Source: a virus | Taxonomy: Duplodnaviria; Caudoviricetes | DNA: 55,215 nucleotides | IMG/VR virus record: IMGVR_UViG_3300020045_003176 | Span: 1 to 55,215 of that record | Strand: one strand, 5' to 3' | Shown here: piece by piece, positions 13,215 to 47,510 of the stretch | How positions within the stretch are numbered: position 1 is the first letter of the stretch | How the letters are laid out: each line of letters begins with the position of its first letter | The notes under the pieces: model-generated | What the model was told of the DNA's origin: nothing | Database searches by the model: none | What the model saw: the letters and a program-made list of their open reading frames with translations, nothing else | Position numbers and translations under genes: made by a program

Positions 13215-13622
13215 TCAAAACGGGATGTCGTCACTGAAATCGGAGAAATCACTCGCGCCGCTTGGTTCTGCTTGTGGCTTAGGTGCTGGCCGTTGAGCCG
13301 GTGCGCTGTCATGATCGGCCTTACCGAGTAGAGTCAAGTCATTCACTCGGACCTCTAGGGAGGATTGCTTCTGGCCTTCCTTATTCGTGAATTCCTTGAG
13401 CGTCAATTCCCCGCTGATACCGACAAGCTGACCTTTCAGCAGGTAGGATTTAACTCCGTCCGATCTCTTTCCCCAATACGAACAACGAACCCATGTCGTT
13501 ACGGATTTGTCTCCGAATCCAGATTTGACGGCAACAGAGAATTGGACAACACTCTCACCACTTGCGATAAAACGCTGCTCACAATCCTTGCCCAGATTTC
13601 CTGTGAAATTGAAGACGTTCAA
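13215..13622 (-). CDS. ssb: single-stranded DNA-binding protein
   Basis: GNLGKD OB-fold start, acidic DDIPF tail. Confidence 0.95.
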   Translation of the reverse strand: MNVFNFTGNLGKDCEQRFIASGESVVQFSVAVKSGFGDKSVTTWVRCSYWGKRSDGVKSYLLKGQLVGISGELTLKEFTNKEGQKQSSLEVRVNDLTLLGKADHDSAPAQRPAPKPQAEPSGASDFSDFSDDIPF

Positions 13623-17864: not shown

Positions 17865-18758
17865 TTGGAAACCATCGAGCTACACCCGCTTTGCTCACTT
17901 TTCCCACGGATGCGCGGAGAAGAATACAGCAAGCTCTGCGAAGACATCAAAGCTAACGGGCTTCGCTACCCAATCATCACACACAATGGAATGATCCTAG
18001 ACGGTGGAAACCGGGCTAGAGCGTGCTTCGATCTGGGGATTGAACCGATATACGAAGATTACACCGGAGATAATCTGGTCAGCTTCGTTCTATCAATGAA
18101 TCTGCATCGTCGGCACATGACGGCTGGTCAGCATGCCGCAATCGTCGCCAGTGCGCAGGACTGGTCTGCGGCTCAGAAAGTGGGAAATCCCCAATTCGGT
18201 AATGTTACCGGATTGCAAACCGTGGCAAGCCGATCTGCGGTATCCGGCGCTTCAGACAAGACTCAGCGCAAGGCTGACGCGGTTGCAAAGGCCGATCCAG
18301 AACTAGCTAAAGCCGTTGGGCATGGCGAAGTCAGCTTGGACGAGGCGCATAAACAGGTTAAGCCTGAAGCATCCACGCGCAAGAAGAAATCCATCTTTCA
18401 GAAGATCAAGGATGCGGTGAAGCCGAAACCTGAACCAATCATTGACGAAGAGTGGGTCGAAGATTACGAGAAAGAAGAAGTAAAGCAAGACGAATTGACG
18501 GACTTGCGCAACCAGAATGAGGTATTGCGCATCACTGCCGATGAATTGCTTGCAGAGAATACCGCGATGGGCAAGGTGTTCGATGCTGACGACCGATTAG
18601 CGGCATTGGTAGCGGAAAACAAAATGCTGAAGGCGCAGATCGATATCATGAAAAGCCGAATTGACGGACTCATGGGCGAGAAGAACGAAGCGGTACGACT
18701 AGTAAAGAGTTGGAAGGCTAAAGCCGAGAAGTTGGAGAAGTCAGTCAATGCAGGCTGA
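17865..18758 (+). CDS. ParB-like protein (ParB N-domain, HTH, coiled coil)
   Basis: HPLCSLFP, DIKANGL..PI, ILDGGNR, SMNLHRRH motifs; TTG start. Confidence 0.85.
   Translation: METIELHPLCSLFPRMRGEEYSKLCEDIKANGLRYPIITHNGMILDGGNRARACFDLGIEPIYEDYTGDNLVSFVLSMNLHRRHMTAGQHAAIVASAQDWSAAQKVGNPQFGNVTGLQTVASRSAVSGASDKTQRKADAVAKADPELAKAVGHGEVSLDEAHKQVKPEASTRKKKSIFQKIKDAVKPKPEPIIDEEWVEDYEKEEVKQDELTDLRNQNEVLRITADELLAENTAMGKVFDADDRLAALVAENKMLKAQIDIMKSRIDGLMGEKNEAVRLVKSWKAKAEKLEKSVNAG
18192..18215. promoter_or_regulatory. palindrome copy 1 (core CGGTAA-TG-TTACCG), parS-like/operator
   Basis: CAATTCGGTAATGTTACCGGATTG inside the ParB-like gene. Confidence 0.7.
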
Positions 18759-22253: not shown

Positions 22254-23636
22254 ATGGATAAAACATACGAAGAATTCTTAAACTTCAAGAGTCAGCACAC
22301 AGGTGGCGACGGATTTGCTCCAGTGTTTATGCCTGACTACCTAATTGACTTCCAGGAACATCTAGTCGATTGGTCGGTCAGGAATGGACGGACGGCAATC
22401 TTTGGGGATTGTGGATTAGGAAAAACGCTCCTTGAGTTTGTGTTTGCTGAAAACATCGTCAGGAAAACAAACAAGAATGTACTTCTTGTCACTGTCCTAG
22501 CGGTTGGCGCGCAGATGGTACTTGAGGCAGAAAAGTTCGGGATTGAGGTACATCGGTCGCATGATGGTAGGGTGTATCGAGGCATCACGATTACGAACTA
22601 TGAGCAGTTGCACAAGTTTAATCCGAATGATTTTGTTGCTCTCGTATGCGACGAAAGTTCGATCATCAAAAATTATGCCGGTATGCGCCGTGGTGAGATA
22701 ACGTCATTCATGCGCAAGATGCAATACAGGCTACTTGCGACAGCTACCGCCGCACCGAATGACTACTTGGAACTAGGAACATCCTCCGAGGCGCTAGGGT
22801 ATCTCGGACACATGGACATGCTGGCGCGGTTTTTTAAGAATGATCTGAACAACTCTGCTACGGGCCGGATGCGCGGCGAGGTTATCAAGTGGCGATTCAA
22901 AGGCCATGCCGAGTTACCGTTTTGGAAGTGGGTCTGCTCATGGGCGAGAGCGATCAGGAAGCCATCTGATCTAGGGTTTGATGATACCAAGTTCATCCTT
23001 CCGCCAATGATCGAGCAAGAACATTTAGTGCAAGTGAATTCGTTAGCGGATGGCATGTTGTTTGCGCTGCCTGCGGTTGGACTCAAGGAGCAGCGAGACG
23101 AGAGGAGGAGGTCAATCGTTGAACGATGCGAGAAAGTCGCTTCACTCGTCAATCATACCGGCGAGCAGGCATTGATCTGGTGTCACTTGAATGAGGAAGG
23201 CGACACACTGGAGCGGATGATACCGGATGCTGTTCAAGTGAGTGGATCTGACAGCGACGAGGCAAAGGAAGAGAAACTGCTCGCCTTTGCGAAAGGATCG
23301 GCACGGGTATTGGTCAGTAAGCAAAAGATAGCAGGATTCGGATTGAACTACCAAAATTGCCATCATGTTCTAGCGTTTCCTTCGCACAGTTACGAGCAGT
23401 ATTATCAAGGAATTCGACGTTGCTGGCGGTTTGGCCAAAAGCATCCGGTCAAGGTGGATATCATAACGACTGAAGGGGAGAACGGAGTATTGAAGAATCT
23501 TCAGAGGAAATCAGCGCAGGCCGACAAGATGTTTACCAATCTAGTCGCACAAATGAACGCATCCATGGCAATCGCTAGGCATACTAATTTCAACAAACAA
23601 TTGGAGTCTCCAGCATGGCTGTCTTCGATCAACTGA
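22254..23636 (+). CDS. SNF2-like helicase/ATPase
   Basis: GDCGLGKT, DESS, TATAAPND, QGIRRCWRFGQ. Confidence 0.88.
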   Translation: MDKTYEEFLNFKSQHTGGDGFAPVFMPDYLIDFQEHLVDWSVRNGRTAIFGDCGLGKTLLEFVFAENIVRKTNKNVLLVTVLAVGAQMVLEAEKFGIEVHRSHDGRVYRGITITNYEQLHKFNPNDFVALVCDESSIIKNYAGMRRGEITSFMRKMQYRLLATATAAPNDYLELGTSSEALGYLGHMDMLARFFKNDLNNSATGRMRGEVIKWRFKGHAELPFWKWVCSWARAIRKPSDLGFDDTKFILPPMIEQEHLVQVNSLADGMLFALPAVGLKEQRDERRRSIVERCEKVASLVNHTGEQALIWCHLNEEGDTLERMIPDAVQVSGSDSDEAKEEKLLAFAKGSARVLVSKQKIAGFGLNYQNCHHVLAFPSHSYEQYYQGIRRCWRFGQKHPVKVDIITTEGENGVLKNLQRKSAQADKMFTNLVAQMNASMAIARHTNFNKQLESPAWLSSIN

Positions 23637-24604
23637 TAACCGATAAGTTCGCTTTGTACCACTCAGGGTGCGTCGAGGTCATGCAGGATTTGCCGGAAAA
23701 ATCAATTGCGCTTTCGGTATATTCACCTCCATTTTGTGGCATGTATCAATATTCAAGCCATGAAAGCGACTTATCGAATTGCAAGAGTTACGGTGAGTTC
23801 TTTGATCACTACGCCTTTGTTGTTCATGAGATTGCCAGAGTCACCATGTCAGGCAGAATGACAGCGGTGCATTGCATGGATGTACCAAATAGCAACAGCG
23901 GAACAGACTCCTATCGTGACTTCCCAGGAGACATTATTCGACTTCATGAAAAAGAAGGATTCAAGTATGCGGGCCGGCACATGATATGGAAAGAACCGTT
24001 AGCAGTTCGATTGCGGACCATGCAGAAGAACTTAGCCCATTCATCACTGTGCGCTGACTCGATTGATTGCGGTGTCGCATCAGGGGATTACTTGCTGATC
24101 TTTCGTCGGAATGGGGAAAACAAAATACCTGTCGCGCATCCTGTAGGGATGTTGGAATACGCGGGAGAAAGAAAACCGCCTGCGGATATTCTCCATTATC
24201 GAGGATGGACCGGAAAGCAGACAGAGAATCGGTTCTCTCACTGGATATGGAGGCAGTACGCTGATTGCATGTGGGACGATATCAGAATGAATCGGGTATT
24301 ACCATACAAAGAAGCACGCGGAGCAGACGATGAAAAGCATGTCCATCCGTTGCAGTTGGATGTAATCGACCGGATTGTTGTTCTTCGCACGAATCCTGGT
24401 GAAACGGTTCTGACCCCATTTATGGGGGTTGGATCGGAGGCTTATTCGGCGGTGTCGTTAGGTCGGCGTGCGGTAGGTATCGAGTTGAAAGCGACTTATT
24501 ACCGACAAGCTGTTAAAAATCTGGAACTCGCAGCGGCTGGTGGTAGTCACTTTGCCGATAACCAGGAGTTGAAATTTGATGACGAAAACGGGTTAGCCGC
24601 ATGA
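23615..24604 (+). CDS. DNA amino-methyltransferase (N4C/N6A, beta class)
   Basis: SPPF catalytic motif precedes the PFMGVGS SAM-binding motif. Confidence 0.88.
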   Translation: MAVFDQLITDKFALYHSGCVEVMQDLPEKSIALSVYSPPFCGMYQYSSHESDLSNCKSYGEFFDHYAFVVHEIARVTMSGRMTAVHCMDVPNSNSGTDSYRDFPGDIIRLHEKEGFKYAGRHMIWKEPLAVRLRTMQKNLAHSSLCADSIDCGVASGDYLLIFRRNGENKIPVAHPVGMLEYAGERKPPADILHYRGWTGKQTENRFSHWIWRQYADCMWDDIRMNRVLPYKEARGADDEKHVHPLQLDVIDRIVVLRTNPGETVLTPFMGVGSEAYSAVSLGRRAVGIELKATYYRQAVKNLELAAAGGSHFADNQELKFDDENGLAA

Positions 24605-33374: not shown

Positions 33375-33398
33375 CTATCCGGTAACATTACCGAATAG
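33375..33398. promoter_or_regulatory. palindrome copy 2 (core CGGTAA-CA-TTACCG)
   Basis: CTATCCGGTAACATTACCGAATAG directly after the terS stop. Confidence 0.7.
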
Positions 33399-34243: not shown

Positions 34244-35821
34244 ATGCTAACTGACGCTGAGATACTAGAGCTAGAGTCGCTGCTAGACCTACGCGACAAG
34301 GATCGGGCGGAACAGAGCCTATACGCATTCGCGCAACAAGCATGGCCGATCATTGAGCCGGGTACGGAGTTCGTACCTGGATGGCACCTGGAGCAGATCT
34401 GTCTGCACTTGGAAGCTGTATCTAATGGTGAGATTCGCAATCTCCTAATCAATATCCCGCCACGGCATTGCAAGAGCCTACTGGTATCAGTCCTATGGGT
34501 AGCATGGACCTGGATCAAACATCCATCACATCGATGGCTCTGCGCCTCCTACGCTGGCAGTCTGTCAGTCCGTGACTCTATTAAGTGTCGGCGACTGATA
34601 CAAAGCGACTGGTATCAAAAGCGCTGGCCGCTCGTCCTGACCGGCGACCAGAACGCCAAGACGTTTTTCGAGAGTGAGAAGGCCGGATACAGGATGGCAA
34701 CATCGGTAGGTGCTTCGACTACTGGTCATGGTGGCGACACAATCCTGATTGACGATCCAATTAACGCCCTGGACGCCTCATCCGATGCGGTCCTAGACTC
34801 AACCCTGGAGTGGTACGATCAAGCCATGAGCACGCGGCTCAATAATCCGCAGTCCGGCTCACGAGTCATCATCATGCAACGGCTCCATGAGCGTGATCTA
34901 TCTGGACACGTGCTGAAGCAAGGCGGATGGGAGCATCTTTGTCTGCCTGCCGAGTACGATGGTATCAAGCGTAAGACGGTCCTCGGACATTACGATCAGC
35001 GTAAGAAGGTAGGCGAGCTGCTCTGGCCTGGTCAGTACGGACGCGAGGAAATCGAGGATTTGAAGGTACGGCTAGGCCAGTACGGAACAGCCGGGCAGCT
35101 TCAGCAGATGCCTTCCCCTGCAGGTGGTGGAATCATCGATACGACCAAGTTCAAGCTATGGCCGAATGACCGCACCCTACCGCCGATGCTGTTTATCGTA
35201 CAGTCGATGGACACGGCTTTCACGGAAAAGACGGAAGGCGATCCGACTGGATGCTTGGTCCTTGGCATCTTTGAGTGGCAGAAGAAGCGCCGATGTATCT
35301 TATTGGATGCCTGGACCGAGCATCTAACGTACCCAAAGCTCCGGCAAAGGGTGATAGACGACTGGCACGCAAGATACAATTCAGACGCAACCTATGGCAA
35401 GGCAGGCAAGGCGGACATTTGCCTGATCGAGAACAAGGGGTCAGGCATGGCCCTGGTAAATGATCTTGGCTCAACTGGAGTCAGGGTAGCGAGCTACGAT
35501 CTACCAAGGGGTCAGAGGTCCGAACTGTCCAAGGTGGCCCGGGTGCATATCGTCACACCAATAATTGATGCTGGCCTATTCTACGTGCTGGAGTCGAAGG
35601 CTAGACCTGGACAGCCTGTCACATGGGCAGATGGGTTTATCAATCAGTGTAAGTCATTCCCTAAGGCAGAGCACGACGAATACCCCGATTGCCTCAGCAT
35701 GGGTCTGTATTACTTGGATGGATCAGGATGGTTTGACCTTCCAGTAGCCAGGGAGGATGACCTACCGGAACTAGACTATGATCGGGCTAGGAAGATGGCG
35801 GAGAATCCTTATGCGAGCTAA
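34244..35821 (+). CDS. terL: terminase large subunit
   Basis: IPPRHCKS Walker A, LIDDP Walker B, MQRLH, C-terminal DTAF...HDE.PD nuclease motifs. Confidence 0.95.
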   Translation: MLTDAEILELESLLDLRDKDRAEQSLYAFAQQAWPIIEPGTEFVPGWHLEQICLHLEAVSNGEIRNLLINIPPRHCKSLLVSVLWVAWTWIKHPSHRWLCASYAGSLSVRDSIKCRRLIQSDWYQKRWPLVLTGDQNAKTFFESEKAGYRMATSVGASTTGHGGDTILIDDPINALDASSDAVLDSTLEWYDQAMSTRLNNPQSGSRVIIMQRLHERDLSGHVLKQGGWEHLCLPAEYDGIKRKTVLGHYDQRKKVGELLWPGQYGREEIEDLKVRLGQYGTAGQLQQMPSPAGGGIIDTTKFKLWPNDRTLPPMLFIVQSMDTAFTEKTEGDPTGCLVLGIFEWQKKRRCILLDAWTEHLTYPKLRQRVIDDWHARYNSDATYGKAGKADICLIENKGSGMALVNDLGSTGVRVASYDLPRGQRSELSKVARVHIVTPIIDAGLFYVLESKARPGQPVTWADGFINQCKSFPKAEHDEYPDCLSMGLYYLDGSGWFDLPVAREDDLPELDYDRARKMAENPYAS

Positions 35822-36123
35822 CCCCACTGATCGGCCATCGATTGGGCAATGCCTTGGTAGGTTCGGCTCCTGTCTTTCCATCGTGTAGGACTAGGCGTTA
35901 ATTTGTTCTGTCCGCTGTTGCACTGATTCCCCCACCGTTCCCGTGCAACTCTCGCGCCGTTGCAGTTCGGGCAACCATACTTAATCACTACTCGCACATC
36001 GCCCTGATAGTGTTGTCCTGGTAAGTCGCTTTTCAATATGTCGCAACTCCATGCGTCATGCCCTTTCGCGGCAGAGGCATCCCGTACTCTTCCACTGTAT
36101 TCGCAGGCAACAAGCACCCTCAT
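35818..36123 (-). pseudogene. internally deleted paralog of the cytosine MTase-like gene
   Basis: N- and C-termini match 30072-30653; HPPC and ENP core missing. Confidence 0.75.
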
Positions 36124-36338
36124 GACCAATTAATCCTAACCCGCACCGCATCAGGCGTGAATACCTCGCTACCACGGATAATGGTTGGCCTCGCCTTCTG
36201 GTCACAATTACAAAATGAGGGGTTCCCGAAGTATGAATTAGCTGGACAGTCTCCCCAATGGGTATTGCCTGGAGCTAGGCCAAGGATAGTCCGCATTCGG
36301 GTATTGAGTCTTTCGGCGATGGTGTCTTCGTCGATCAT
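36120..36338 (-). CDS. hypothetical protein
   Basis: ATGA coupling. Confidence 0.45.
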   Translation of the reverse strand: MIDEDTIAERLNTRMRTILGLAPGNTHWGDCPANSYFGNPSFCNCDQKARPTIIRGSEVFTPDAVRVRINWS

Positions 36339-36580
36339 ATAGGCAGTCTCCCAGTATTAAGCCAATGTTCCATGCTCATGATGAGGCCTTGCACCTGTTC
36401 TCGGTCCAGGTGATGATCCTGTCCGACCCATAGATAACTGCTTCCCGGCTTATCCATTGAATCTTCGTAGTCACCAATGGCCGATGATTCCTGAATCAAT
36501 CGAGTGAATTCGCCTGGTTCATTTTGATACTTCTCTTCTTCTATTACGATGAATCCACGGTCAGTCTTTATGGCGCGCAT
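36335..36580 (-). CDS. conserved phage protein (T.RGF...QESS....WVG...HL.REQV..L)
   Basis: Recognisable motif. Confidence 0.65.
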   Translation of the reverse strand: MRAIKTDRGFIVIEEEKYQNEPGEFTRLIQESSAIGDYEDSMDKPGSSYLWVGQDHHLDREQVQGLIMSMEHWLNTGRLPI

Positions 36581-36583
36581 GAT

Positions 36584-36793
36584 TCACCCCTCTGAAAATA
36601 GCAGTGTCAGACTGCATATGGTCAATGGGTCACTCGGAAGCATTCCTAAATTCGTATCGTTGAGGATGAATTTCTTCAACTCTAGGTAATCCTCCATCGA
36701 CAGGATTGGATTCTTTAGTGTGGCGATACCGTCGAGATTGGCGACTTCTCCGATTCTCCTTTGTTGTATGGCGTGGTAGTGGTAGATGTACAT
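36584..36793 (-). CDS. hypothetical protein
   Basis: TAATG coupling. Confidence 0.55.
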   Translation of the reverse strand: MYIYHYHAIQQRRIGEVANLDGIATLKNPILSMEDYLELKKFILNDTNLGMLPSDPLTICSLTLLFSEG

Positions 36794-37011
36794 TATCCAT
36801 TCATCGCCTTAAACTGTTTCAGTGAAATAGGAATAGCGAACAGTAGAGCGTACTCTGATTGCTCGTCTAGTAATTGATTACAAGCGAGTGACTCGGCAGG
36901 ATGTTTGTCAGTGGCATAGCTATAGACAGTCTCGACGATGTATCCGCCAGACGCTACTCGCTCTTTCCTGATAGTGACTAGCCAGTATTGTTTAGCAGAC
37001 ATATCATCCAA
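36793..37011 (-). CDS. hypothetical protein
   Basis: Operon packing. Confidence 0.5.
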   Translation of the reverse strand: MDDMSAKQYWLVTIRKERVASGGYIVETVYSYATDKHPAESLACNQLLDEQSEYALLFAIPISLKQFKAMNG

Positions 37012-37225
37012 TCGCCATCATCATTGGGCCATCGTAGTTGTCAGTCACCAAGAATGTATGATGGCCTTCGCACGGAATGATCGGCACGCCGCACAGGACA
37101 TTGCCTGATCCCCTACGATACTCTGGGAACGCGTCAACCATATCTTGGTAGCACATGAATACCGCTAATGGTCTTGGTGACATCTGCCTCGTTATAGCGC
37201 CAACTAGCTTACCTTCAGTCATCAT
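37004..37225 (-). CDS. hypothetical protein
   Basis: ATGA coupling. Confidence 0.5.
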   Translation of the reverse strand: MMTEGKLVGAITRQMSPRPLAVFMCYQDMVDAFPEYRRGSGNVLCGVPIIPCEGHHTFLVTDNYDGPMMMAIG

Positions 37226-37446
37226 CTTTGGTCTCCTTCAACGCTAACAATTTTACCGCGCTCTTTCCGTATTGTTTGCGACCATGAACATGATGCGCAC
37301 GACCGAGTTATTGACTCCATTGCTGGTCCGTTATACCAAGTACCATCGGTGTCTTTCCATGCTCGATAGGCGTCGGCAGTGACCATTGAGCTGCCGGTCC
37401 AGTGAGGGCAATCGCAGACGGGGCAACGAGAGTAAATCTCCATCAT
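37222..37446 (-). CDS. zinc-ribbon hypothetical protein
   Basis: CPVC...CASC. Confidence 0.5.
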   Translation of the reverse strand: MMEIYSRCPVCDCPHWTGSSMVTADAYRAWKDTDGTWYNGPAMESITRSCASCSWSQTIRKERGKIVSVEGDQR

Positions 37447-37613
37447 TTCCCATTCAACATCTTAAACAACTTCATTGCCCCTGGTGGCGGGGTCTGTTTG
37501 CCTTCCTCCCATCGTGACCATGTCCTATGGCTAACCTCGACCTGTTTAGCGGCTTTGGCAATGGTTAGGCCGAGACTGTTTCTCAACAATTTCAGTTCGA
37601 TGCCGGTCATCAT
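37443..37613 (-). CDS. XRE/Cro-type HTH regulator (56 aa, not in ORF track)
   Basis: MMTGIELKLLRNSLGLTIAKAAKQVEVSHRTWSRWEEGKQTPP... Confidence 0.8.
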   Translation of the reverse strand: MMTGIELKLLRNSLGLTIAKAAKQVEVSHRTWSRWEEGKQTPPPGAMKLFKMLNGK

Positions 37614-37933
37614 GCGTACCACTTCTTGATCTTGTGATATTCCGCAACAACATCCCAGTATCCGAGCGATTCGAGTAGCGCAACTAGAACATCGTCTGCT
37701 CCGGTGTGTGCATATTCGTGGTCGTTATCATGCTGCAATACTATCAGTCTAGCCAGTGCTTCTTCTCTGGTCATGTTCATTCTTTCTTTGGTAATTTCCG
37801 TCGCAAACTCGGCAAGCATGTTGCGCATTGTGTCATTGATGAAGTCCCATCGTCCATCGCCTTTGTACTGTGCGAACCCGGCTTTAGCAGCGGCTTCTAG
37901 CCAGTGTTTAGGCCAACAGTGAATGATGGTCAT
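37610..37933 (-). CDS. hypothetical protein (C-terminal D.E.AH..AD.VL...WYA domain)
   Basis: Possibly a fusion of two small phage ORFs. Confidence 0.55.
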   Translation of the reverse strand: MTIIHCWPKHWLEAAAKAGFAQYKGDGRWDFINDTMRNMLAEFATEITKERMNMTREEALARLIVLQHDNDHEYAHTGADDVLVALLESLGYWDVVAEYHKIKKWYA

Positions 37934-38394
37934 ACATTTGTCTCCATGTTTTGCCGGACATCTTCCCCGCCCATCTTATTCATTCTGTCGTACAGCACTA
38001 CATTTGCCGTGGCCGCAAGATTCATACAACCATGAGTAGGAACATACACTACGTCACGGCACCAAGACAGCACACGCTCGCCTAACGTAGCGTCTTCAGC
38101 GCCGAAAATGTAAAACGCTCTCACTGGATGCACGTAACTCACCAAACTACGGGCACCAGACACCAAATCAATTGCCACTGGGACACAATCATACGGAATA
38201 ACTAGCCGTAAATCCTCAGTTTCAATCACTGGAGTCATCCGCCATTGCTTCTTTACATCGGTCGGCACTTTCCTCATCCTATGCCCAGACATGGCGACCA
38301 TTGCGGCACCGTAGCATCCAGCAGCGCGCATGACGCCGCCTACATTTGCAGAGCATTTGGGGTTATCTAGCCCGATTGCAGCAAACCCCCGCAT
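37930..38394 (-). CDS. SpoU/TrmH-family (SPOUT) RNA methyltransferase
   Basis: NPK..NVG.VMRAA (motif 1), YIFGAED (motif 2), VP..CMNLAATANVVLYD (motif 3). Confidence 0.9.
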   Translation of the reverse strand: MRGFAAIGLDNPKCSANVGGVMRAAGCYGAAMVAMSGHRMRKVPTDVKKQWRMTPVIETEDLRLVIPYDCVPVAIDLVSGARSLVSYVHPVRAFYIFGAEDATLGERVLSWCRDVVYVPTHGCMNLAATANVVLYDRMNKMGGEDVRQNMETNV

Positions 38395-38396
38395 GA

Positions 38397-38759
38397 TTAT
38401 CGCATCACCCTATACCCACGCCCTGCCATACAGTTCTTGACGACACTCCGCTGACCGTTATCGCCTTCCATTCCACCACCTAGCGCACCTGTTACTAGTC
38501 CTACTCTAGCGGTAGCGCCCTGATCGTAGCCTTTCCCTGCGGCTGCGGCAAGGATGGCACCGAACAATGCGCCAGCGATGGCACCTGCTGCGGCACTGCT
38601 ACCCGCTCCAGCGACTTGACTGGCGTATTGCTGGCATTCCCCTAGATCGGATTCCAGTCGGTTCAAATCCACTCCCTTGGTATCTACCAGAGGGCGATAG
38701 TTAGCTCCGGCGCATCCTGTGAGTGTCAGGACGATCATACATTTTGCTAGTGTTTTCAT
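38397..38759 (-). CDS. glycine-zipper lipoprotein
   Basis: Lipobox LTGC16, GAIAGALFGA zipper, C-terminal CMAGRGY. Confidence 0.8.
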   Translation of the reverse strand: MKTLAKCMIVLTLTGCAGANYRPLVDTKGVDLNRLESDLGECQQYASQVAGAGSSAAAGAIAGALFGAILAAAAGKGYDQGATARVGLVTGALGGGMEGDNGQRSVVKNCMAGRGYRVMR

Positions 38760-38777
38760 GATTATCTCCGGTGATTA

Positions 38778-39164
38778 TTAACTGAACTCCAGTGATTCGC
38801 CAGCTTTTGCGGCTTTTCGGCATCCTTTAATCCATTTGCGTGCTGTTGCTCCTATTCCTCCGTTGCGCTCAAGATGTCCGCCACCACCGCCCATATCATC
38901 AAGTTTTGGCAACAGCAACTCCATCTCATCGGCACATTTCGCAGCAAGGTATGGTGTAATTTCTCCCTCACAATCTCCGTGCGCTAGGAATTCAAACAGG
39001 CCAGGATGTGTTTCCTTGGAATAACCTTCTCCAAAGTGCCAGAACTCACGCCCGCTTACCGCGTCGCACCAATGGCCTTCGGTAGCCTTGCAAACCGACT
39101 CTCTGAACCTGTTGAATGCAGAATACGCGCCATCGAATGCGCCGTGTGAAACATCTAGTCCCAT
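38778..39164 (-). CDS. conserved phage protein (MGLD...Y..F..FR...H.DCEG)
   Basis: GAGGGG SD; recognisable motif. Confidence 0.7.
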   Translation of the reverse strand: MGLDVSHGAFDGAYSAFNRFRESVCKATEGHWCDAVSGREFWHFGEGYSKETHPGLFEFLAHGDCEGEITPYLAAKCADEMELLLPKLDDMGGGGGHLERNGGIGATARKWIKGCRKAAKAGESLEFS

Positions 39165-39211
39165 ATTATTCCCCCTCAAATCGTCACGGCGAATGCCACG
39201 ACCCAATACGA

Positions 39212-39251: not shown

Positions 39252-39271
39252 ATCCGGTAACATTACCGGAT
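39252..39271. promoter_or_regulatory. palindrome copy 3
   Basis: ATCCGGTAA-CA-TTACCGGAT between divergent promoters. Confidence 0.75.
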
Positions 39272-39287
39272 AGGCTAATGAATATCA

Positions 39288-39316
39288 TTGACGCGCTACC
39301 ATGATTTTGTTATACA
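39288..39316 (+). promoter_or_regulatory. rightward promoter for the portal operon
   Basis: TTGACG-N17-TATACA with TGn. Confidence 0.65.
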
Positions 39317-39335
39317 ATTGAGAATGATTCTCATT
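39317..39335. promoter_or_regulatory. Fur box 1
   Basis: ATTGAGAATGATTCTCATT, 7-1-7 core, over the predicted +1. Confidence 0.75.
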
Positions 39336-39339
39336 CGCA

Positions 39340-39555
39340 TTGGTACAAAGCATGGCCGCTCACAAGAAGCCGCACCGATCAATATGCTCTGACGTGAATG
39401 TATTGGCGCGAGGGGCGATCTACACACCGGATGGCAGTAATTGCCCAATGTGCCGCGATTACATCCCAAGTCAATCGTATATCGACTACCTGAAAATGAC
39501 TTATGGATGGGAATATCTGCCGGCTTTTGTCTATCATGAAGAGGTCACGGCATAA
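39340..39555 (+). CDS. small hypothetical protein
   Basis: CPMC; TAATG coupling to portal. Confidence 0.4.
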   Translation: MVQSMAAHKKPHRSICSDVNVLARGAIYTPDGSNCPMCRDYIPSQSYIDYLKMTYGWEYLPAFVYHEEVTA

Positions 39556-42182
39556 TGGCAGCGGTCAATCCATCTGACGAACGCGACCGGAACATTCCCG
39601 GTTTATCCGCTGACGAACTAGCCCCTCCTGATCCTGAAATTGAGGATATTGGCGAGGAAATGACCGAGAATCCCGATGGTTCGGTCACTATTCAAGACAC
39701 AGAAGAAGATGAACCGTCCGAAGGCGAGTTTTTCGACAATCTTGTACTCACATTAGACAAATCCGTTCTCGCATCCATCCAATTAGACCTACTGGAGAAG
39801 ATCGAACGGGACAAAGATGCTCGAAAGAAGAGGGATGACCAGTATGCTGAAGGACTCAAACGGTCTGGATTATCTGGGGATGCCCCTGGTGGAGCGCAAT
39901 TCACTGGAGCAAGTAAGGTCGTCCATCCGATTCTTGCGGAATCCTCCGTCGATTTCGCCGCCAGTGCCATTAAAGAACTCTTTCCCCCCGATGGACCCGC
40001 TAAATCGAAGTTACGAGGTAAAGAAACCGACGCCAAGAAGCTAACAGCGACTAGGAAGGCCAATTACCTCAATTGGCAGATGACTCGGGACATAGAAGAG
40101 TACCGTGATGAGCTAGAACAACTCCTTTCCCAACTCCCAATGGGAGGCTCACAGTATAAGAAGTGGCGACAAGATGACCAATTAGGCCGTCCAGCGGTTG
40201 AATTTGTCCCGGTGGATGACGTTTTACTCCCTTACGCAGCGACCAATTTCTATACCGCTGCCCGGGTGACTCATCGACAGCTTCTGACCCGTTCTCAGTT
40301 CGAGGAAAGGGTAGAAAGTGGGCTTTATGAGTACGACGGACCTGTGGATGAGAACGTCACAGACCCCGAACAGACAAGTTCCGAACAAGCCAATGACCGA
40401 ATCGAAGGACGGGAAGAAACCTGCTACAACGAAGACGGATTGAGGCTCATTTACGAGGTTTATACCTGGCGAAAGATCAAGGATGACAAACTATCGGAGG
40501 GCAAGAATGCGCCCTACATCATCACCGTCGATCCTGACACCTTGGCTGTGCTGGCTATTTATCGAAACTGGAAAGAAGGCGATCCACGCCTTAAAAAGCT
40601 CGACTGGTGGGTAGATTACGGCTTTATTCCTTGGCGGGGAGCCTATAAGTTAGGGCTGTTCCATCTTATTGGTGGATTAGCAATCTCTTTGACCGGAACC
40701 CTGAGAGCGCTTCTCGATTCTGCTCACATAAACAACGCCGCCACGATGCTCAAGCTCAAGTCTGGGCGAATGAGCGGACAGAACACAGGGATTGAAGTTA
40801 CCCAGGTTCAAGAAATTGACGGACCCGCAGGGATAGATGATATTCGCAAATTGGCAATGCCGATGCCGTTCAATCCCCCTTCTACGGTTCTCTTTCAACT
40901 CTTGGGATGGCTCACCGATGCAGCTAAAGGCGTCATTACTACCGCAGAAGAAAAGATCGCCGATGCAAGTAATAACATGCCGGTTGGAACTACTCTCGCA
41001 CTTATTGAGCAAGGCAGTAAGGTGGCGTCTGCTATACACGCACGGTTACATGCCTCCCAGCAGAAGTCGATGGAGATTCTATGCCGGATTAATTCAGTCT
41101 GGTTCGATGCCGAAAAGGCTAGAGAAGTCTTTGGAGACGAAGCTCCTACCCGAGAAGACTTCCTCAATTCAGAAGATATCCAGCCCGTAAGTGATCCAAA
41201 TGTCTTCTCGGACGCACAGAGATTTGCCAAGTGGCAAGCACTCTCGCAGATGTCTCAAGACCCGTCAATTAAATGGGACAGGTACGAAGTAGCAATGGAA
41301 GGTCTTCGGCTGATGAAAGTCGAAGATCCTGAAAGATATCTACCCGAAGTACCGAAACCGGAGATGCTGGAACCCGTCGAGGAACACGTCGCCGCGACCA
41401 AAGGAAAGCCACTCAAAGTATATCCGACTCAGGATGACTTGATGCACATTGCGGCTCACTTAAAATTCGCTACCGGGCCACTTTTGCAAGCCGCTGGCAT
41501 AATCATGCCTGCTGTTCCTATCCTCGTGGAGCATGTCAAAGAGCATATGATGCAATACTATCTGGAACATGCGAGTATTGCGGCTGAAACAGCGGAAAAA
41601 CTCGGTCAGGCACACGGCGCAGAGGCACAAACGCGAACATCTGACGTAGTAATGCAGACAATGACGCAGGAATTGCAGTCAATCATGCCACTTTTCCAGC
41701 AAGCACAGGAAATAGCTCAAAAAGCCGCGCAAAGTCAGACGCCTCCGATGGACCCACAGAGCCAAGTTGCACTCCAGTTGGGTCAGGCCGAGATTCAGCG
41801 GAAAACGACCTACGATCAAGGCATGCTGCAACTGAAAACGCAGGAAATGCAGGCGAATCAGCAAGCAGAGCAAGCCAGAATGCAGACAGAACAGCAAATT
41901 GGACAGATAGAACTTTCCATGAAGCAGCAACAATTAGCAGCGGATGCAAAATTAGCTGTTTTGGCGCAACAAGTAGAAGTCCAGAAAAATGCTGATGACA
42001 ACCGGCAAAAACAGATCACAGAACTTCGCAAAAACGCGGATGACAACAATTCAAACATCATAATTGAGGCAATGAAACAGCAATTAGCCAAGATGCAAAT
42101 GGATGTTGATGAAGCCAGGGCGCAACGAGCCGAACAAGAGCAGGAAGTCGAAGCAGAATCCACCGCTGGGACGAGTGAATGA
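39555..42182 (+). CDS. portal protein (P22-like, long C-terminal Gln-rich barrel)
   Basis: GAS.V.HP.L.E, ELFP..GP, R.L.DS...N, PVGTT.AL.EQ, PVSDPN motifs; 875 aa. Confidence 0.9.
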   Translation: MAAVNPSDERDRNIPGLSADELAPPDPEIEDIGEEMTENPDGSVTIQDTEEDEPSEGEFFDNLVLTLDKSVLASIQLDLLEKIERDKDARKKRDDQYAEGLKRSGLSGDAPGGAQFTGASKVVHPILAESSVDFAASAIKELFPPDGPAKSKLRGKETDAKKLTATRKANYLNWQMTRDIEEYRDELEQLLSQLPMGGSQYKKWRQDDQLGRPAVEFVPVDDVLLPYAATNFYTAARVTHRQLLTRSQFEERVESGLYEYDGPVDENVTDPEQTSSEQANDRIEGREETCYNEDGLRLIYEVYTWRKIKDDKLSEGKNAPYIITVDPDTLAVLAIYRNWKEGDPRLKKLDWWVDYGFIPWRGAYKLGLFHLIGGLAISLTGTLRALLDSAHINNAATMLKLKSGRMSGQNTGIEVTQVQEIDGPAGIDDIRKLAMPMPFNPPSTVLFQLLGWLTDAAKGVITTAEEKIADASNNMPVGTTLALIEQGSKVASAIHARLHASQQKSMEILCRINSVWFDAEKAREVFGDEAPTREDFLNSEDIQPVSDPNVFSDAQRFAKWQALSQMSQDPSIKWDRYEVAMEGLRLMKVEDPERYLPEVPKPEMLEPVEEHVAATKGKPLKVYPTQDDLMHIAAHLKFATGPLLQAAGIIMPAVPILVEHVKEHMMQYYLEHASIAAETAEKLGQAHGAEAQTRTSDVVMQTMTQELQSIMPLFQQAQEIAQKAAQSQTPPMDPQSQVALQLGQAEIQRKTTYDQGMLQLKTQEMQANQQAEQARMQTEQQIGQIELSMKQQQLAADAKLAVLAQQVEVQKNADDNRQKQITELRKNADDNNSNIIIEAMKQQLAKMQMDVDEARAQRAEQEQEVEAESTAGTSE

Positions 42183-42385
42183 GTACCAGCAATTTTATAA
42201 ATGCCAGTCATTTACAGGAATGGATGCGCTGTCACGATCTAACTCATGAAACGGCTGCTGACGCGCTTGGAATAGCGCGTAGATCATTGAATTATTACCT
42301 ATCAGGCAAGAAGCCAATTCCGCTCAAAGTGGGACTAGCAAGGATTGGGTGGGAAGTTGAACAAGGATTAAGGACCATTAACTAA
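42179..42385 (+). CDS. XRE-type HTH protein
   Basis: LTHETAADALGIARRSLNYYLSGKKPIP. Confidence 0.75.
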   Translation: MSTSNFINASHLQEWMRCHDLTHETAADALGIARRSLNYYLSGKKPIPLKVGLARIGWEVEQGLRTIN

Positions 42386-42396
42386 GGAGTATCACC

Positions 42397-42555
42397 ATGA
42401 AGGCAGTCAATCAGCACAAAGAAATGGCAATGGGCCAACCTCTCGCCAAGTCCCCCGCACCTATCGCCAAGTACAAGAAGGGTGGCCTCGTCAAGCCGGA
42501 ACCCATGCCAGCGAAGAAGGGCGGTAATCCGTTCGCCAAAAAGGAAAAGTGTTAA
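42397..42555 (+). CDS. small basic KKGG-motif protein (52 aa, not in ORF track)
   Basis: AAGGAG SD; YKKGGLV and AKKGG motifs. Confidence 0.65.
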   Translation: MKAVNQHKEMAMGQPLAKSPAPIAKYKKGGLVKPEPMPAKKGGNPFAKKEKC

Positions 42556-42738
42556 GTGGATCTAGTCACACTCCGAAAACAGTTTGTCGATCTTCAGAAC
42601 GAACACGCTCACGCGGCGATGTCATTCCCCTCATCTGACCCGTTTAGTCATGGGGTCAGTGTCGGCGAGTATCGAGCGTACAAATCAATCATCCAGGCTA
42701 TCACCGTAGCTTTGAAGGATGACGACGAGGACGAGTAA
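42556..42738 (+). CDS. conserved small head-module protein
   Basis: VG.Y motif, acidic tail, usual position before GroES-like gene. Confidence 0.6.
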   Translation: MDLVTLRKQFVDLQNEHAHAAMSFPSSDPFSHGVSVGEYRAYKSIIQAITVALKDDDEDE

Positions 42739-42752
42739 TTTTTTTAACCTGC

Positions 42753-42773
42753 AAATGAGAATGATTCTCATTT
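42753..42773. promoter_or_regulatory. Fur box 2
   Basis: Perfect 10-1-10 palindrome AAATGAGAAT-G-ATTCTCATTT, intergenic. Confidence 0.8.
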
Positions 42774-42831
42774 AGATTTACGGTGCCTTGTCCGACACAA
42801 GGAATAGCGCTAACCGAGCGATGAAGGAGTA

Positions 42832-43086
42832 ATGATGCAAGGCGATTTAGTAGAGGATCAGGAAACCATCCTGAAAACGACCAGTAAGGCAATGGGATTC
42901 ACCGAGGCATTCAATGCGCTCGACCTATTCCAAAAGGTTAGGCGATCCAACTGGTACAGCGGACGATACCTAATCATTGATGGGGATGACGATCCGGTTA
43001 TCCGGGTGATCGACGGCAAGAACAATTACATGTGGTCCCCGCTTCAAGAGGATTTGTTCGCCAAGAATTGGGAGATTGTGCGATGA
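42832..43086 (+). CDS. tad2: Tad2/DUF2829-like anti-defence sponge protein
   Basis: F.EA..L...KVRR.NW...W.P.QEDLFA.NWE signature; AAGGAG SD. Confidence 0.65.
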   Translation: MMQGDLVEDQETILKTTSKAMGFTEAFNALDLFQKVRRSNWYSGRYLIIDGDDDPVIRVIDGKNNYMWSPLQEDLFAKNWEIVR

Positions 43087-43484
43087 GCCTCGACCAATTC
43101 AAACAGGACAACTTTCCCGAGATTGAACCCGGCTGCAAGCCCTTTGGAGTTGATGTCCTGGTCCAACTAAAGACCACGCAGACGGTATCCAAGGGTGGGA
43201 TCTTCCTCGCTCGTGACACGCAAGAGGCCAACGATGAAAACACGATGGTTGCCAAAGTCATTCAACTTGGGCCGCTTGCCTACCGGAACAGGGACACCGG
43301 CGAACTCTGGCCGGAAGGGGTATGGGCTAACGCCGGGGATATTGTACTTGTACCTAAATGGGGTGGATTTAGATTCGGACGCACGCTACCCAACGGGGAT
43401 AAGGCTAGATTCTGTCTCTTCCAAGATAAAGAGCTTCGGGGTGGCTTGAATGAGCACTTCGAGGGGCTTTTGGAGGTGATATGA
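43083..43484 (+). CDS. GroES-like co-chaperonin
   Basis: P.G..VLV, mobile loop SKGGIFL, V..LGP.AY, W...GD.V. Confidence 0.85.
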   Translation: MSLDQFKQDNFPEIEPGCKPFGVDVLVQLKTTQTVSKGGIFLARDTQEANDENTMVAKVIQLGPLAYRNRDTGELWPEGVWANAGDIVLVPKWGGFRFGRTLPNGDKARFCLFQDKELRGGLNEHFEGLLEVI

Positions 43485-43708
43485 ACGCTCAAGAATTCAA
43501 CGAGGTAATCCAAAGCAGGCTAACGACGGTCATTGACGAGATTCACGAAATCAAAAGATCGGCCGCGCGCTTACATGGCTATGGGGGACTCTGCCAACAC
43601 GCATCGAATGCTTTGATACGTACAGCGATGGATATTCAAGCGCAATACCGTATCAATCAAGAACTAACCAGCGAATTTGAGGTAGGCAAAAAGCCTAATA
43701 AAACATGA
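43481..43708 (+). CDS. hypothetical protein
   Basis: GGAGGT SD, ATGA overlaps. Confidence 0.55.
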   Translation: MNAQEFNEVIQSRLTTVIDEIHEIKRSAARLHGYGGLCQHASNALIRTAMDIQAQYRINQELTSEFEVGKKPNKT

Positions 43709-44697
43709 GCACTGAAAATGAAGAACTTGAACTCAAAGAACAAGCAGATGGAACGGTCCATGTCACTGACCCCGGCGACAAGGGCGAGACTAACGCCACT
43801 GCCGATGACCAAGACGGCGACGATGAAGAGGGCAGTAGCGGCCAAGATGAAAGAACTTCCAATGTGGAAGCTGGCGATTCTGAGTCTGATGAAGTAAAGA
43901 ACCCCAAGACCGAACAAAACCGACTCCGCAGGGATGCTCGGAAACAAAGAGCACACGACCGTAATGAACGGATGATGTCCGAACTCAAGGCGAGGGACGC
44001 GGTAATCGCTGATCTGACGGCGAGGATTCAACGACAAGAGAGCAAGACGTCCGGTACGGAGATGGTTCATGTCGATGAGGAAATCAGGAAGAGTGCGGAC
44101 GCCTACAACTACTTCAAGAGACAGATAGCGGAAGCCCACGGCAACCCGGACGCCGGGACGATCATGGCCGACGCGACGGAGAAGATGGTACTTGCATCAA
44201 ACCGTTATGCAGATTTGAACCGCGTCAAGAAACAGATGATCGAACGGCAGAACCAGCCTCCGGCGATTGATCCTGTCCTACTTAAGAGGGGCCAGGATTG
44301 GGTCGCCAAGAATCCTTGGTACAACCCGAACGGTGGAGATGAGGACAGCGACATTGCTCTGGTCGTTGATAGAGCGCTCTTGAAAGAAGGCTGGAACGCC
44401 AGAACAACGGAGTATTGGGACGAACTTGATAAAAGGATTGCAAAAAGATTGCCACACAGGTATAAATCCAATTATACTAATGAGAATGATTCTCATTCGC
44501 AACAACGCCCGCGATCCGTCGTCACCGGATCTGGCCGCGAATCGAATGGATCAGGAAACGGAAGTAGCGGATATGTCCTATCCGCAGAACGGGTAGCAGC
44601 GATAAAAGAAGCCGGATTATGGGATTCACCAAAAGACCGCGCTGAAAGTATCAGACGTTATCGTCAATATGACAAAGAACAAGGAGCTACGAAATGA
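43705..44697 (+). CDS. putative scaffolding protein
   Basis: Acidic N-terminus, coiled coil, W..KNPW and EYW.ELDKR motifs; position. Confidence 0.65.
   Translation: MSTENEELELKEQADGTVHVTDPGDKGETNATADDQDGDDEEGSSGQDERTSNVEAGDSESDEVKNPKTEQNRLRRDARKQRAHDRNERMMSELKARDAVIADLTARIQRQESKTSGTEMVHVDEEIRKSADAYNYFKRQIAEAHGNPDAGTIMADATEKMVLASNRYADLNRVKKQMIERQNQPPAIDPVLLKRGQDWVAKNPWYNPNGGDEDSDIALVVDRALLKEGWNARTTEYWDELDKRIAKRLPHRYKSNYTNENDSHSQQRPRSVVTGSGRESNGSGNGSSGYVLSAERVAAIKEAGLWDSPKDRAESIRRYRQYDKEQGATK
44449..44497 (+). promoter_or_regulatory. internal promoter with Fur box 3
   Basis: TTGCCA-N18-TATACT followed at once by AATGAGAATGATTCTCATT (44479-44497). Confidence 0.7.
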
Positions 44698-46595: not shown

Positions 46596-47510
46596 ATGTC
46601 CGGCATAATTTTACGGAGTAGCGACTTCCGCTCAATAGTCGCCCCGATCCTCAATCAAGCCTTTGATGGGATATATGACCAACGAGTCAATGAGTACAAG
46701 AAGGTCTTTTCGGAAGAAACAGGCATTGCCCGTTCCTACCACGAAGAACCCGTCCTGTACGGTTTTGGGTCTGCTCCCATCCTTCCCGATGGGCAGCCCG
46801 TTACGTATGACCAAGGCGGGCAACTGTTCGTCAAGCGTTACACCTACGATGTCTATGGACTGGCTTTTGCCATTACCAAAGTCCTTTACGAAGACGGAGA
46901 CCACATCCGAATCGGCACGACCTACTCCAAACACTTGGGCCAGTCGATGTCTGAAACGATTGAAACGGTCTGTGCAAACCATCTAAACCGTTTCAACAAC
47001 GGCTCTTATACAGGTGGCGACGGTGTAGCACTCTGTTCGACTTCTCACCCTGCCGCATCGGGTGGTAATCAGTCCAACCTTCTGACCGCAGCGGCCTTGT
47101 CCCAGACTTCTCTTGAACAGGCGATGACAACCATTCGTGCCGCAGTGGATTCGCGGGCAAAGAAGATCCGCCTTACCCCTAAGCGTCTGATCGTTGCTCC
47201 GGCGAATATGCTGGTGGCTGAAGTCCTTCTGAACTCGGTTCTTCGTTCAGGAAATGCCAACAACGATATCAACCCGATCAAGTCGATGGGTCTGCTCAGT
47301 GAGGCAGTCACGATGTCGCGTTTGACCTCGACGACCGCCTGGTTCGTGCAAAACGATGTTCAAAACGGCCTCAAGCTGTTGTGGCGTCGGAAACTCGAAA
47401 AGGGCATGGAAGGCGACTTCGAAACTGACTCGGTACGGTACAAATCGACTATGCGTTTTGGGTCGGGGTGGACCGATTGGCGCGATATCTACGGCAACGC
47501 AGGTGCGTAA
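46596..47510 (+). CDS. major capsid protein (HK97 fold)
   Basis: AAGGA SD; GGDGVAL.S.SHP, P..LIV.P, DF.T...YK..R...GW.DWR motifs. Confidence 0.92.
   Translation: MSGIILRSSDFRSIVAPILNQAFDGIYDQRVNEYKKVFSEETGIARSYHEEPVLYGFGSAPILPDGQPVTYDQGGQLFVKRYTYDVYGLAFAITKVLYEDGDHIRIGTTYSKHLGQSMSETIETVCANHLNRFNNGSYTGGDGVALCSTSHPAASGGNQSNLLTAAALSQTSLEQAMTTIRAAVDSRAKKIRLTPKRLIVAPANMLVAEVLLNSVLRSGNANNDINPIKSMGLLSEAVTMSRLTSTTAWFVQNDVQNGLKLLWRRKLEKGMEGDFETDSVRYKSTMRFGSGWTDWRDIYGNAGA

Follow-up and report, generated by a model that had tools for sequence, protein, structure and literature searches.

Three Fur-box palindromes at promoter-like elements in the head module of an uncultured Caudoviricetes phage, candidate operators for a host iron regulator

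The DNA studied here (hereafter the window) is the full length of the IMG/VR record IMGVR_UViG_3300020045_003176, a linear sequence of 55,215 bp from a phage of the Caudoviricetes, with a completeness estimate of 71%. Its head module, which holds the genes for the portal and the major capsid protein, contains three copies of a palindrome that matches published binding sites of the ferric uptake regulator (Fur). A scan of the window found three exact plus-strand copies of the 17-mer TGAGAATGATTCTCATT, at 39319-39335, 42756-42772 and 44481-44497. The original prediction, made from the sequence before our analysis, had described such a 17-mer three times in the head module, a 21-bp palindrome at 42753-42773, and a third box that directly follows TTGCCA-N18-TATACT inside the open reading frame (ORF) of the scaffold. 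All of this was borne out, with copies starting at 39319, 42756 and 44481, the palindrome reading AAATGAGAATGATTCTCATTT and the ORF spanning 43705-44697. The boxes, the promoter-like elements and a second palindrome in the same region are as follows.

39317-39335, no strand assigned: Fur box 1, ATTGAGAATGATTCTCATT, 18/19 to the consensus, over the expected +1
42753-42773, no strand assigned: Fur box 2, the 21-bp palindrome AAATGAGAATGATTCTCATTT, whose 19-mer is AATGAGAATGATTCTCATT
44479-44497, no strand assigned: Fur box 3, AATGAGAATGATTCTCATT, a perfect 19-mer, directly after the -10
39288-39316, plus strand: P1, promoter-like, TTGACG-N17-TATACA, with TGT before the -10 (an extended -10)
44449-44478, plus strand: P3, promoter-like, TTGCCA-N18-TATACT, 10/12, within ORF 43705-44697
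39253-39270, no strand assigned: second palindrome, TCCGGTAACATTACCGGA, 18 nt upstream of the P1 -35 and unrelated to the Fur box

With their flanks, sites 2 and 3 read AATGAGAATGATTCTCATT and site 1 reads ATTGAGAATGATTCTCATT. Once the images on the reverse strand (1-2 mismatches) are added, the 17-mer gives six strand-matches. By comparison, 100 dinucleotide shuffles lead one to expect 0.24 matches at up to 3 mismatches, and none of the 100 reaches six. Three exact copies of the 17-mer are far beyond chance. A weaker box overlaps box 1 with an offset of 6 nt, at 39323; apart from this one and a 5-mismatch match at 37425, no further site was found window-wide at up to 5 mismatches in 18 positions. 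One GANTC, the CcrM-type methylation word, is found within every box whose centre is G or C. A link between methylation and Fur binding was considered and dropped because the phage N6_N4 methylase (23615-24604) is merely distantly CcrM-like, with 43 bits against a cut-off of 830.

The palindrome is a 19-bp 9-1-9 inverted repeat with a 7-1-7 core, a form that matches the experiment-derived Fur consensus. The consensus in Xanthomonas campestris, obtained from Fur-regulated TonB-dependent receptor genes, is AATGAgAATcATTctCATT (PMC1790865). Compared in reverse complement, boxes 2 and 3 agree with this sequence at 19 of 19 positions and box 1 at 18 of 19 (PMC1790865). In Enterococcus faecalis, the box of the iron transporter EF3082-85, whose expression rises 12-18 fold in a fur mutant, is TGAGAATGATTCTCA (PMC6056675). 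It is identical to the 15-mer core of the box in the window (PMC6056675).

The distribution of the sequence in bacteria points in the same direction. We scanned bacterial genomes, one per species, for the perfect 19-mer and found at least 120 loci. Its bearers include Massilia, Janthinobacterium, Rhodoferax, Polynucleobacter, Nitrosomonas and Methylophilaceae, and also SAR86, Lysobacterales, Trichococcus and Ilumatobacteraceae. Among the matches listed, 110 of 121 sites lie outside long ORF calls, and 144 flanking ORFs start within 300 nt of a site and read away from it. Pfam searches with these 144 ORFs gave Plug (15), TonB_dep_Rec (13), ZnuA (7) and FTR1 (6), and FeoB, FUR and Peripla_BP_2 with four each. 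Because genes for iron uptake and homeostasis flank the 19-mer, it is, judged by its gene neighbours, an iron-regulon operator in many bacteria. The proposal that the 17-mer matches a Fur box is upheld both by this gene context and by the identity to published consensus sites (PMC1790865, PMC6056675).

All three boxes stand at promoter-like elements. Box 1 directly follows the -10 of P1 and covers the expected +1, as had been predicted for the portal promoter. Box 3 follows P3, which is the top promoter-like match across 36-48 kb (10/12). Both boxes begin 0 nt after the -10, and the geometry is identical at the two sites. Box 2 lies between two weak hexamers, which we refer to as P2. The overlap with core promoters, with sites 1 and 3 abutting -10-like hexamers and site 2 between the hexamers of P2, is an overlap with consensus matches in every case. 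Sites 1 and 3 also have a 30-nt unit in common, TTATACWAWTGAGAATGATTCTCATTCGCA. A shared promoter type was considered and dropped, as the unit TTATACWA plus box is present at sites 1 and 3 only. The scan called terminator-like sites neither at the boxes nor on the plus strand between 39.3 and 45 kb.

Site 1 sits in a divergent control region together with the second palindrome. TCCGGTAACATTACCGGA occurs three times with 0-1 mismatch (18195-18212, 33378-33395 and 39253-39270), which 0 of 100 shuffles reach, and it is probably the site of a phage-encoded factor. Since one of its copies lies 18 nt before the portal -35, the portal promoter bears two different dyads.

Box 3 differs from the other two in lying within a coding sequence. 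In ORF 43705-44697 it reads N-E-N-D-S-H-S, in a part of the putative scaffold where a hypervariable linker joins the conserved LPHRY and RPRSVVTGSGRE motifs. Among 72 aligned matches, this linker is between 0 and ~22 residues long. At the linker that carries box 3, an 18-nt insertion and a divergent stretch set the window apart from L004, a viral contig that is the closest relative found (identity 74% for the portal and 65% for the putative scaffold). Given the peptide NENDSHS, the codon choice that creates the box has a probability of ~0.001 under the phage's own codon usage. At box 3, the DNA word is kept rather than the peptide.

The genes around the boxes are listed below.

39352-39555, plus strand: small ORF, 67 aa from ATG (71 aa from TTG at 39340), first after box 1
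39555-42182, plus strand: portal protein (phrog_1216, E 5.9e-14), 74% identity to L004
42179-42385, plus strand: helix-turn-helix (HTH) protein of 68 aa (HTH_3, 18.4 bits against a Pfam cut-off of 23; phrog_2328, E 3.8e-4)
42832-43086, plus strand: Tad2-like protein (Thoeris anti-defence; PF11195, E 1.6e-9), first after box 2
43032-43484, plus strand: GroES/Cpn10-like co-chaperonin (PF00166, E 1.8e-6), present in 63/83 relatives
43705-44697, plus strand: putative scaffold (by position), a conserved head-module protein gene that contains P3 and box 3, 65% identity to L004
44694-45257 and 45267-45824, plus strand: two conserved head genes downstream of P3
45854-46594, plus strand: NUMOD3 homing endonuclease, between the conserved head genes and the capsid gene
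46596-47510, plus strand: major capsid protein, 64.5% to Caulobacter phages RW, GB2A, RLK and KcrB

Of the gene names used in the original prediction, those of the portal, Tad2-like and GroES genes agree with family matches, and 'scaffold' and 'decoration' are names by gene position only. The capsid protein is also 64.5% identical to the annotated major capsid protein of MW202545. Among 83 related loci, homologues are present for the portal, GroES, putative scaffold and capsid proteins. The small ORF, which has no family match, has no homologue in the 83, and neither has the Tad2-like gene. The NUMOD3 gene is an insertion because weak matches to it occur in only 3 of the 83 relatives. Boxes 1 and 2 therefore differ from box 3 in their surroundings, the former standing before genes without a homologue in any relative and the latter before conserved genes.

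Upstream of box 1, an inverted accessory island of ~8 small genes on the minus strand (35818-39206) splits the terminase from the portal. It includes a SpoU-type methylase (37930-38394) and a methyltransferase fragment (35818-36129). In L004, the genes in the counterpart of this region are co-directional with the portal. The phage-specific small ORF, HTH and Tad2-like genes and the inverted island, all unlike L004, suggest that the boxes arrived with a lineage-specific rearrangement. In the window no integrase or resolvase and no tRNA gene was found, and the nucleotide match to cultured phages is a single stretch of 94 nt. A search for a Fur homologue (PF01475) found none in the window, which represents a record 71% complete by estimate; the binder would thus be the Fur of the host.

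In relatives of the phage, the boxes are missing from the regions that could be compared. L004 has no box at up to 3 mismatches in 11.4 kb, and Caulobacter phage RW (24.5 kb) and MW202545 (24.9 kb) have none at up to 5 mismatches. Among 80 capsid relatives from IMG/VR (1.04 Mb) there are 0 boxes at up to 3 mismatches and six matches at 4. The boxes are specific to this phage lineage. A metagenome scan with the alignment of the putative scaffold returned 235 pattern matches, of which 0 were confirmed. As a separate observation, four related contigs (L288:8855, L301:8855, L304:8855 and L310:4203) share the conserved word AATGCGCATTATTGACATT ~146 nt before the capsid gene, a word with 4 mismatches to the Fur consensus.

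We also asked how often the box occurs in other viruses. At least 118 other viral contigs contain the 17-nt core, whatever its centre base, and among the matches listed, to which the counts for box-bearing viral loci below also refer, 11 contigs have several copies. A reversed control word is found in 49 viral contigs, none of them multi-copy. Of the 132 matches to the core, 118 have G or C as their centre base, against 12 of 49 for the control, and 126 of the 132 viral sites lie outside long ORFs. The ORFs that flank viral boxes are mostly small and have no assigned function; iron genes were not found among them. The excess over the control, at least 118 contigs against 49, points to a wider and so far undescribed use of Fur by phages.

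Some of these contigs belong to the family of the phage studied here. Homologues of its portal occur in 7 of the 118 box-found loci and in 0 of the 49 control loci, with identities of 47-56% for L024, L037, L106 and L115 and ~30% for L120, L053 and L028. Each of the seven has its box at the 5' edge of the terminase-portal operon, 3.3-4.6 kb before the portal. Among 80 portal relatives sampled independently there was one more case, L418, whose box AATGATAATCATTCTCATT is 4.4 kb upstream of the portal (reversed control 0). As L418 is alone in that sample, Fur boxes are rare in this phage family, at ~2% of the portal-relative sample. Those that do occur are placed where the packaging and head genes begin. 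Terminase genes were found in 14 of the 118 box-bearing loci and 0 of the 49 control loci, in short pieces and with one terminase type searched; we do not claim an enrichment of boxes near phage terminases generally because the loci are short and a single terminase type was searched. The 118 box-bearing viral loci (1.03 Mb) contain no homologue of the HTH protein, the small ORF or the Tad2-like protein, and the idea that boxes travel together with these cargo genes was dropped on this ground.

Several arrangements in these contigs are recorded here as observations of their own. In L020, L046 and L075, the box is located just downstream of TGGCAC-N5-TTGC words that resemble sigma-54 promoters, and L046 has three words of this type around a single box. 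The low-GC contigs L009, L040, L068, L069 and L071 have a layout in common, in which TTGACA-N17-TAAAAT/TATAAT is followed by CGGCGCC and this by a perfect box ~11 nt after the -10. Tandem boxes are found in L122 (three at 1811-1890, 30 nt apart), L103 (two adjacent at 13593), and L027 and L078 (pairs 42 nt apart). Such tandem boxes could be arrays for cooperative binding or titration.

The centre base bears on what kind of element the palindrome is. The boxes might be dispersed repeats of no function, or RNA hairpins for processing or attenuation, with Fur uninvolved. The 30-nt unit common to sites 1 and 3 suggests copying, a hairpin of 8-9 bp, rich in A/U, would be possible, and a T-rich stretch follows site 2. 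However, the identity to the Fur consensus and the preference for G or C at the centre in phage matches, which the control word lacks, indicate a protein site. In addition, no terminator-like site was called at the boxes, and what comes after sites 1 and 3 is CGCA and not a T run. We consider repeats or hairpins a very unlikely explanation of the boxes.

If the palindrome is a protein site, its binder could be encoded by the phage. Palindromes of 15-19 bp are common binding sites of small HTH dimers. The 68-aa HTH protein, or a protein from the missing 29% of the genome, may be a dimeric regulator that binds the boxes, their likeness to Fur sites being a coincidence or mimicry. The HTH gene is located in the same module as the boxes and, like them, has no counterpart in the 83 relatives, and its product weakly matches phage repressor families (phrog_2328, E 3.8e-4). 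On the other hand, its HTH_3 match is under the Pfam cut-off, other viral loci that carry the box have no homologue of it, and TCCGGTAACATTACCGGA with its three copies is a better candidate for the site of the phage's own factor. A coincidence would also have to account for a 19/19 match to the Fur consensus (PMC1790865) in a word that marks iron genes across bacteria. A binder encoded by the phage thus appears unlikely.

We favour, with modest confidence, the reading that host Fur binds the three sites and represses the head-module promoters when it is loaded with iron. From the sequences we infer Fur binding, repression and a benefit to the phage; the transcription of the head genes is thus probably under the control of the host's iron sensor. 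The three palindromes would be operators for host Fur, each at a position where a Fur dimer on the DNA would stand in the way of RNA polymerase. Boxes 1 and 3, which directly follow the -10 and span the +1, would control P1 (small ORF and portal) and P3 (conserved head genes and capsid). Box 2, in the spacer between the -35 and -10 of the weak P2, would control the Tad2-like, GroES and putative scaffold genes. Transcription of the head module would be repressed while Fur carries Fe2+, and released once Fur is free of iron or outnumbered. As for the origin of the arrangement, it probably lies in the island and the insertions. The inverted island (35818-39206) would have severed the portal from the terminase operon, and new genes would have been inserted. 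With the portal cut off from that operon by the rearrangement, the head module would have needed new promoters, and the ones acquired would be of host type and carry the same operator.

A related possibility is that the boxes serve chiefly to draw off Fur. This is a variant of repression by host Fur and not its opposite. Early in infection, Fur-Fe would shut the head promoters; as the phage genome replicates, its perfect boxes would outcompete the fewer and weaker operators of the host. Hundreds of boxes would then draw off Fur, and the head genes and the host's iron-uptake regulon would switch on together. Such a copy-number timer would need no late activator of the phage's own, and it could be in sporadic use across environmental phages, including the relatives with a box at the packaging operon. 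The principle is that of the Fur titration assay (FURTA), in which one Fur box, carried on a multicopy plasmid, can be enough to relieve the repression of a reporter under Fur control. The density of sites is consistent with a sponge. At up to 1 mismatch, the phage has 3 boxes in 55 kb, and any sampled bacterial genome (1-7 Mb) has 0-2; in the order of the Massilia genome G002, one or two boxes are found at this threshold in 11 of 81 genomes and none with the reversed control. The tandem, gene-less arrays on other viral contigs (the triple array of L122, with its 30-nt spacing, and L103) are also in line with titration. Nevertheless, the phage has just three sites, and each is found at a promoter-like element that reads in the sense direction, a placement that suits operators better than decoys. 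We therefore regard titration as quite unlikely to be the chief role of the boxes.

A number of observations weigh against control of the head genes by host Fur, and some of them concern the promoters. P1 is absent from the list of the promoter scan because the final base of its -10 is an A. P2 is weak: its hexamers TGCAAA and TAGATT match at 7/12 by inspection, its spacer of 17 nt is exactly the 17-mer, and it is unlisted in the scan of 36-48 kb. The region as a whole has 10 promoter-like matches compared with 13.2 in shuffles. There is no enrichment, and P1-P3 therefore remain predictions. The claim that the boxes lie on promoters holds in that all three are at promoter-like elements, and it is weakened by the low score of P2 and by the lack of enrichment. 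The phage-specific HTH gene (42179-42385; 0 homologues among 83 relatives, as for the boxes) and the ~29% of the phage genome that is estimated to be missing count on the same side. It is also hard to see what a phage for which a search gave no integrase would gain by silencing its head genes in iron-replete cells.

Other points against it come from relatives and hosts. At homologous positions, there are 0 boxes in the 83 plus 80 related loci, and a box anywhere was found in 1 of 80 portal relatives (L418; 897 kb in total, the upstream stretch being at least 4.6 kb long in 46 relatives). The boxes are not a family-conserved trait, and the sites are not kept at homologous positions. The original prediction had named the absence of boxes in relatives as grounds for its rejection. 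Such absence is what we found at homologous positions, and it is softened by the eight related contigs with a box elsewhere. The nearest cultured relatives infect Caulobacter (capsid 64.5%). In the class of the alphaproteobacterial genome G001, a box at up to 2 mismatches is present in just 47 of 301 genomes (reversed control 2/301, counted at this threshold only), and a box at up to 1 mismatch in 11 of 301. Being uncultured, the phage is in addition a weaker model system. In sum, what stands of the earlier interpretation is the identity of the Fur boxes, their promoter-like placement and the gap in the literature described below; the absence of boxes at homologous positions in relatives speaks against it.

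Host iron repressors that act on phage DNA are known from other systems. Fur controls stx1, and DtxR controls the tox gene of corynephage. In lambdoid coliphages, a fur box precedes sitABCD (PMC6969025). The window resembles these cases in having a site for a host iron repressor on phage DNA. Those genes, however, are accessory cargo of prophages, whereas here all three promoter-like elements of the head module carry the site and no integrase was found. Morons, in which a promoter and a cargo gene are inserted into late operons, offer another comparison. Boxes 1 and 2 likewise directly precede genes that relatives lack, the small ORF and the Tad2-like gene. In contrast to morons, no terminator follows either gene, so that transcription from these promoters would run on into the conserved portal, GroES and putative scaffold genes, and box 3 stands before conserved genes.

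Compared with the Fur boxes of iron-uptake genes in X. campestris (PMC1790865) and E. faecalis (PMC6056675), the window has the same 9-1-9 palindrome at a promoter. It differs in that the boxes are on a phage, before the portal, chaperonin, putative scaffold and capsid genes, with no iron gene nearby. A further parallel is found in phages of Alphaproteobacteria, in which CtrA-binding sites have been described and 'lytic deferment' proposed (PMC9437464). There, too, sites for a global host regulator lie in phage control regions and a link to the state of the host was proposed; the link is to the cell cycle and not to iron, and the CtrA sites are described as common to a phage group whereas the boxes here are lineage-specific (PMC9437464). 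For a Shewanella fur mutant, induction of phage genes is reported, no site being shown (PMC3790847). No report of Fur operators on portal, scaffold or capsid promoters was found in our full-text searches, in agreement with the earlier remark that no case was known for core structural genes.

Control of phage cargo such as toxins and metal transporters by host iron repressors is established; control of core virion promoters by them is not reported in what our full-text searches covered. Iron is often limiting in natural waters, and gating by Fur, if true, would for this reason matter to models of viral lysis and nutrient turnover. How much virus is produced in such waters would then hinge directly on the iron state of the cell.

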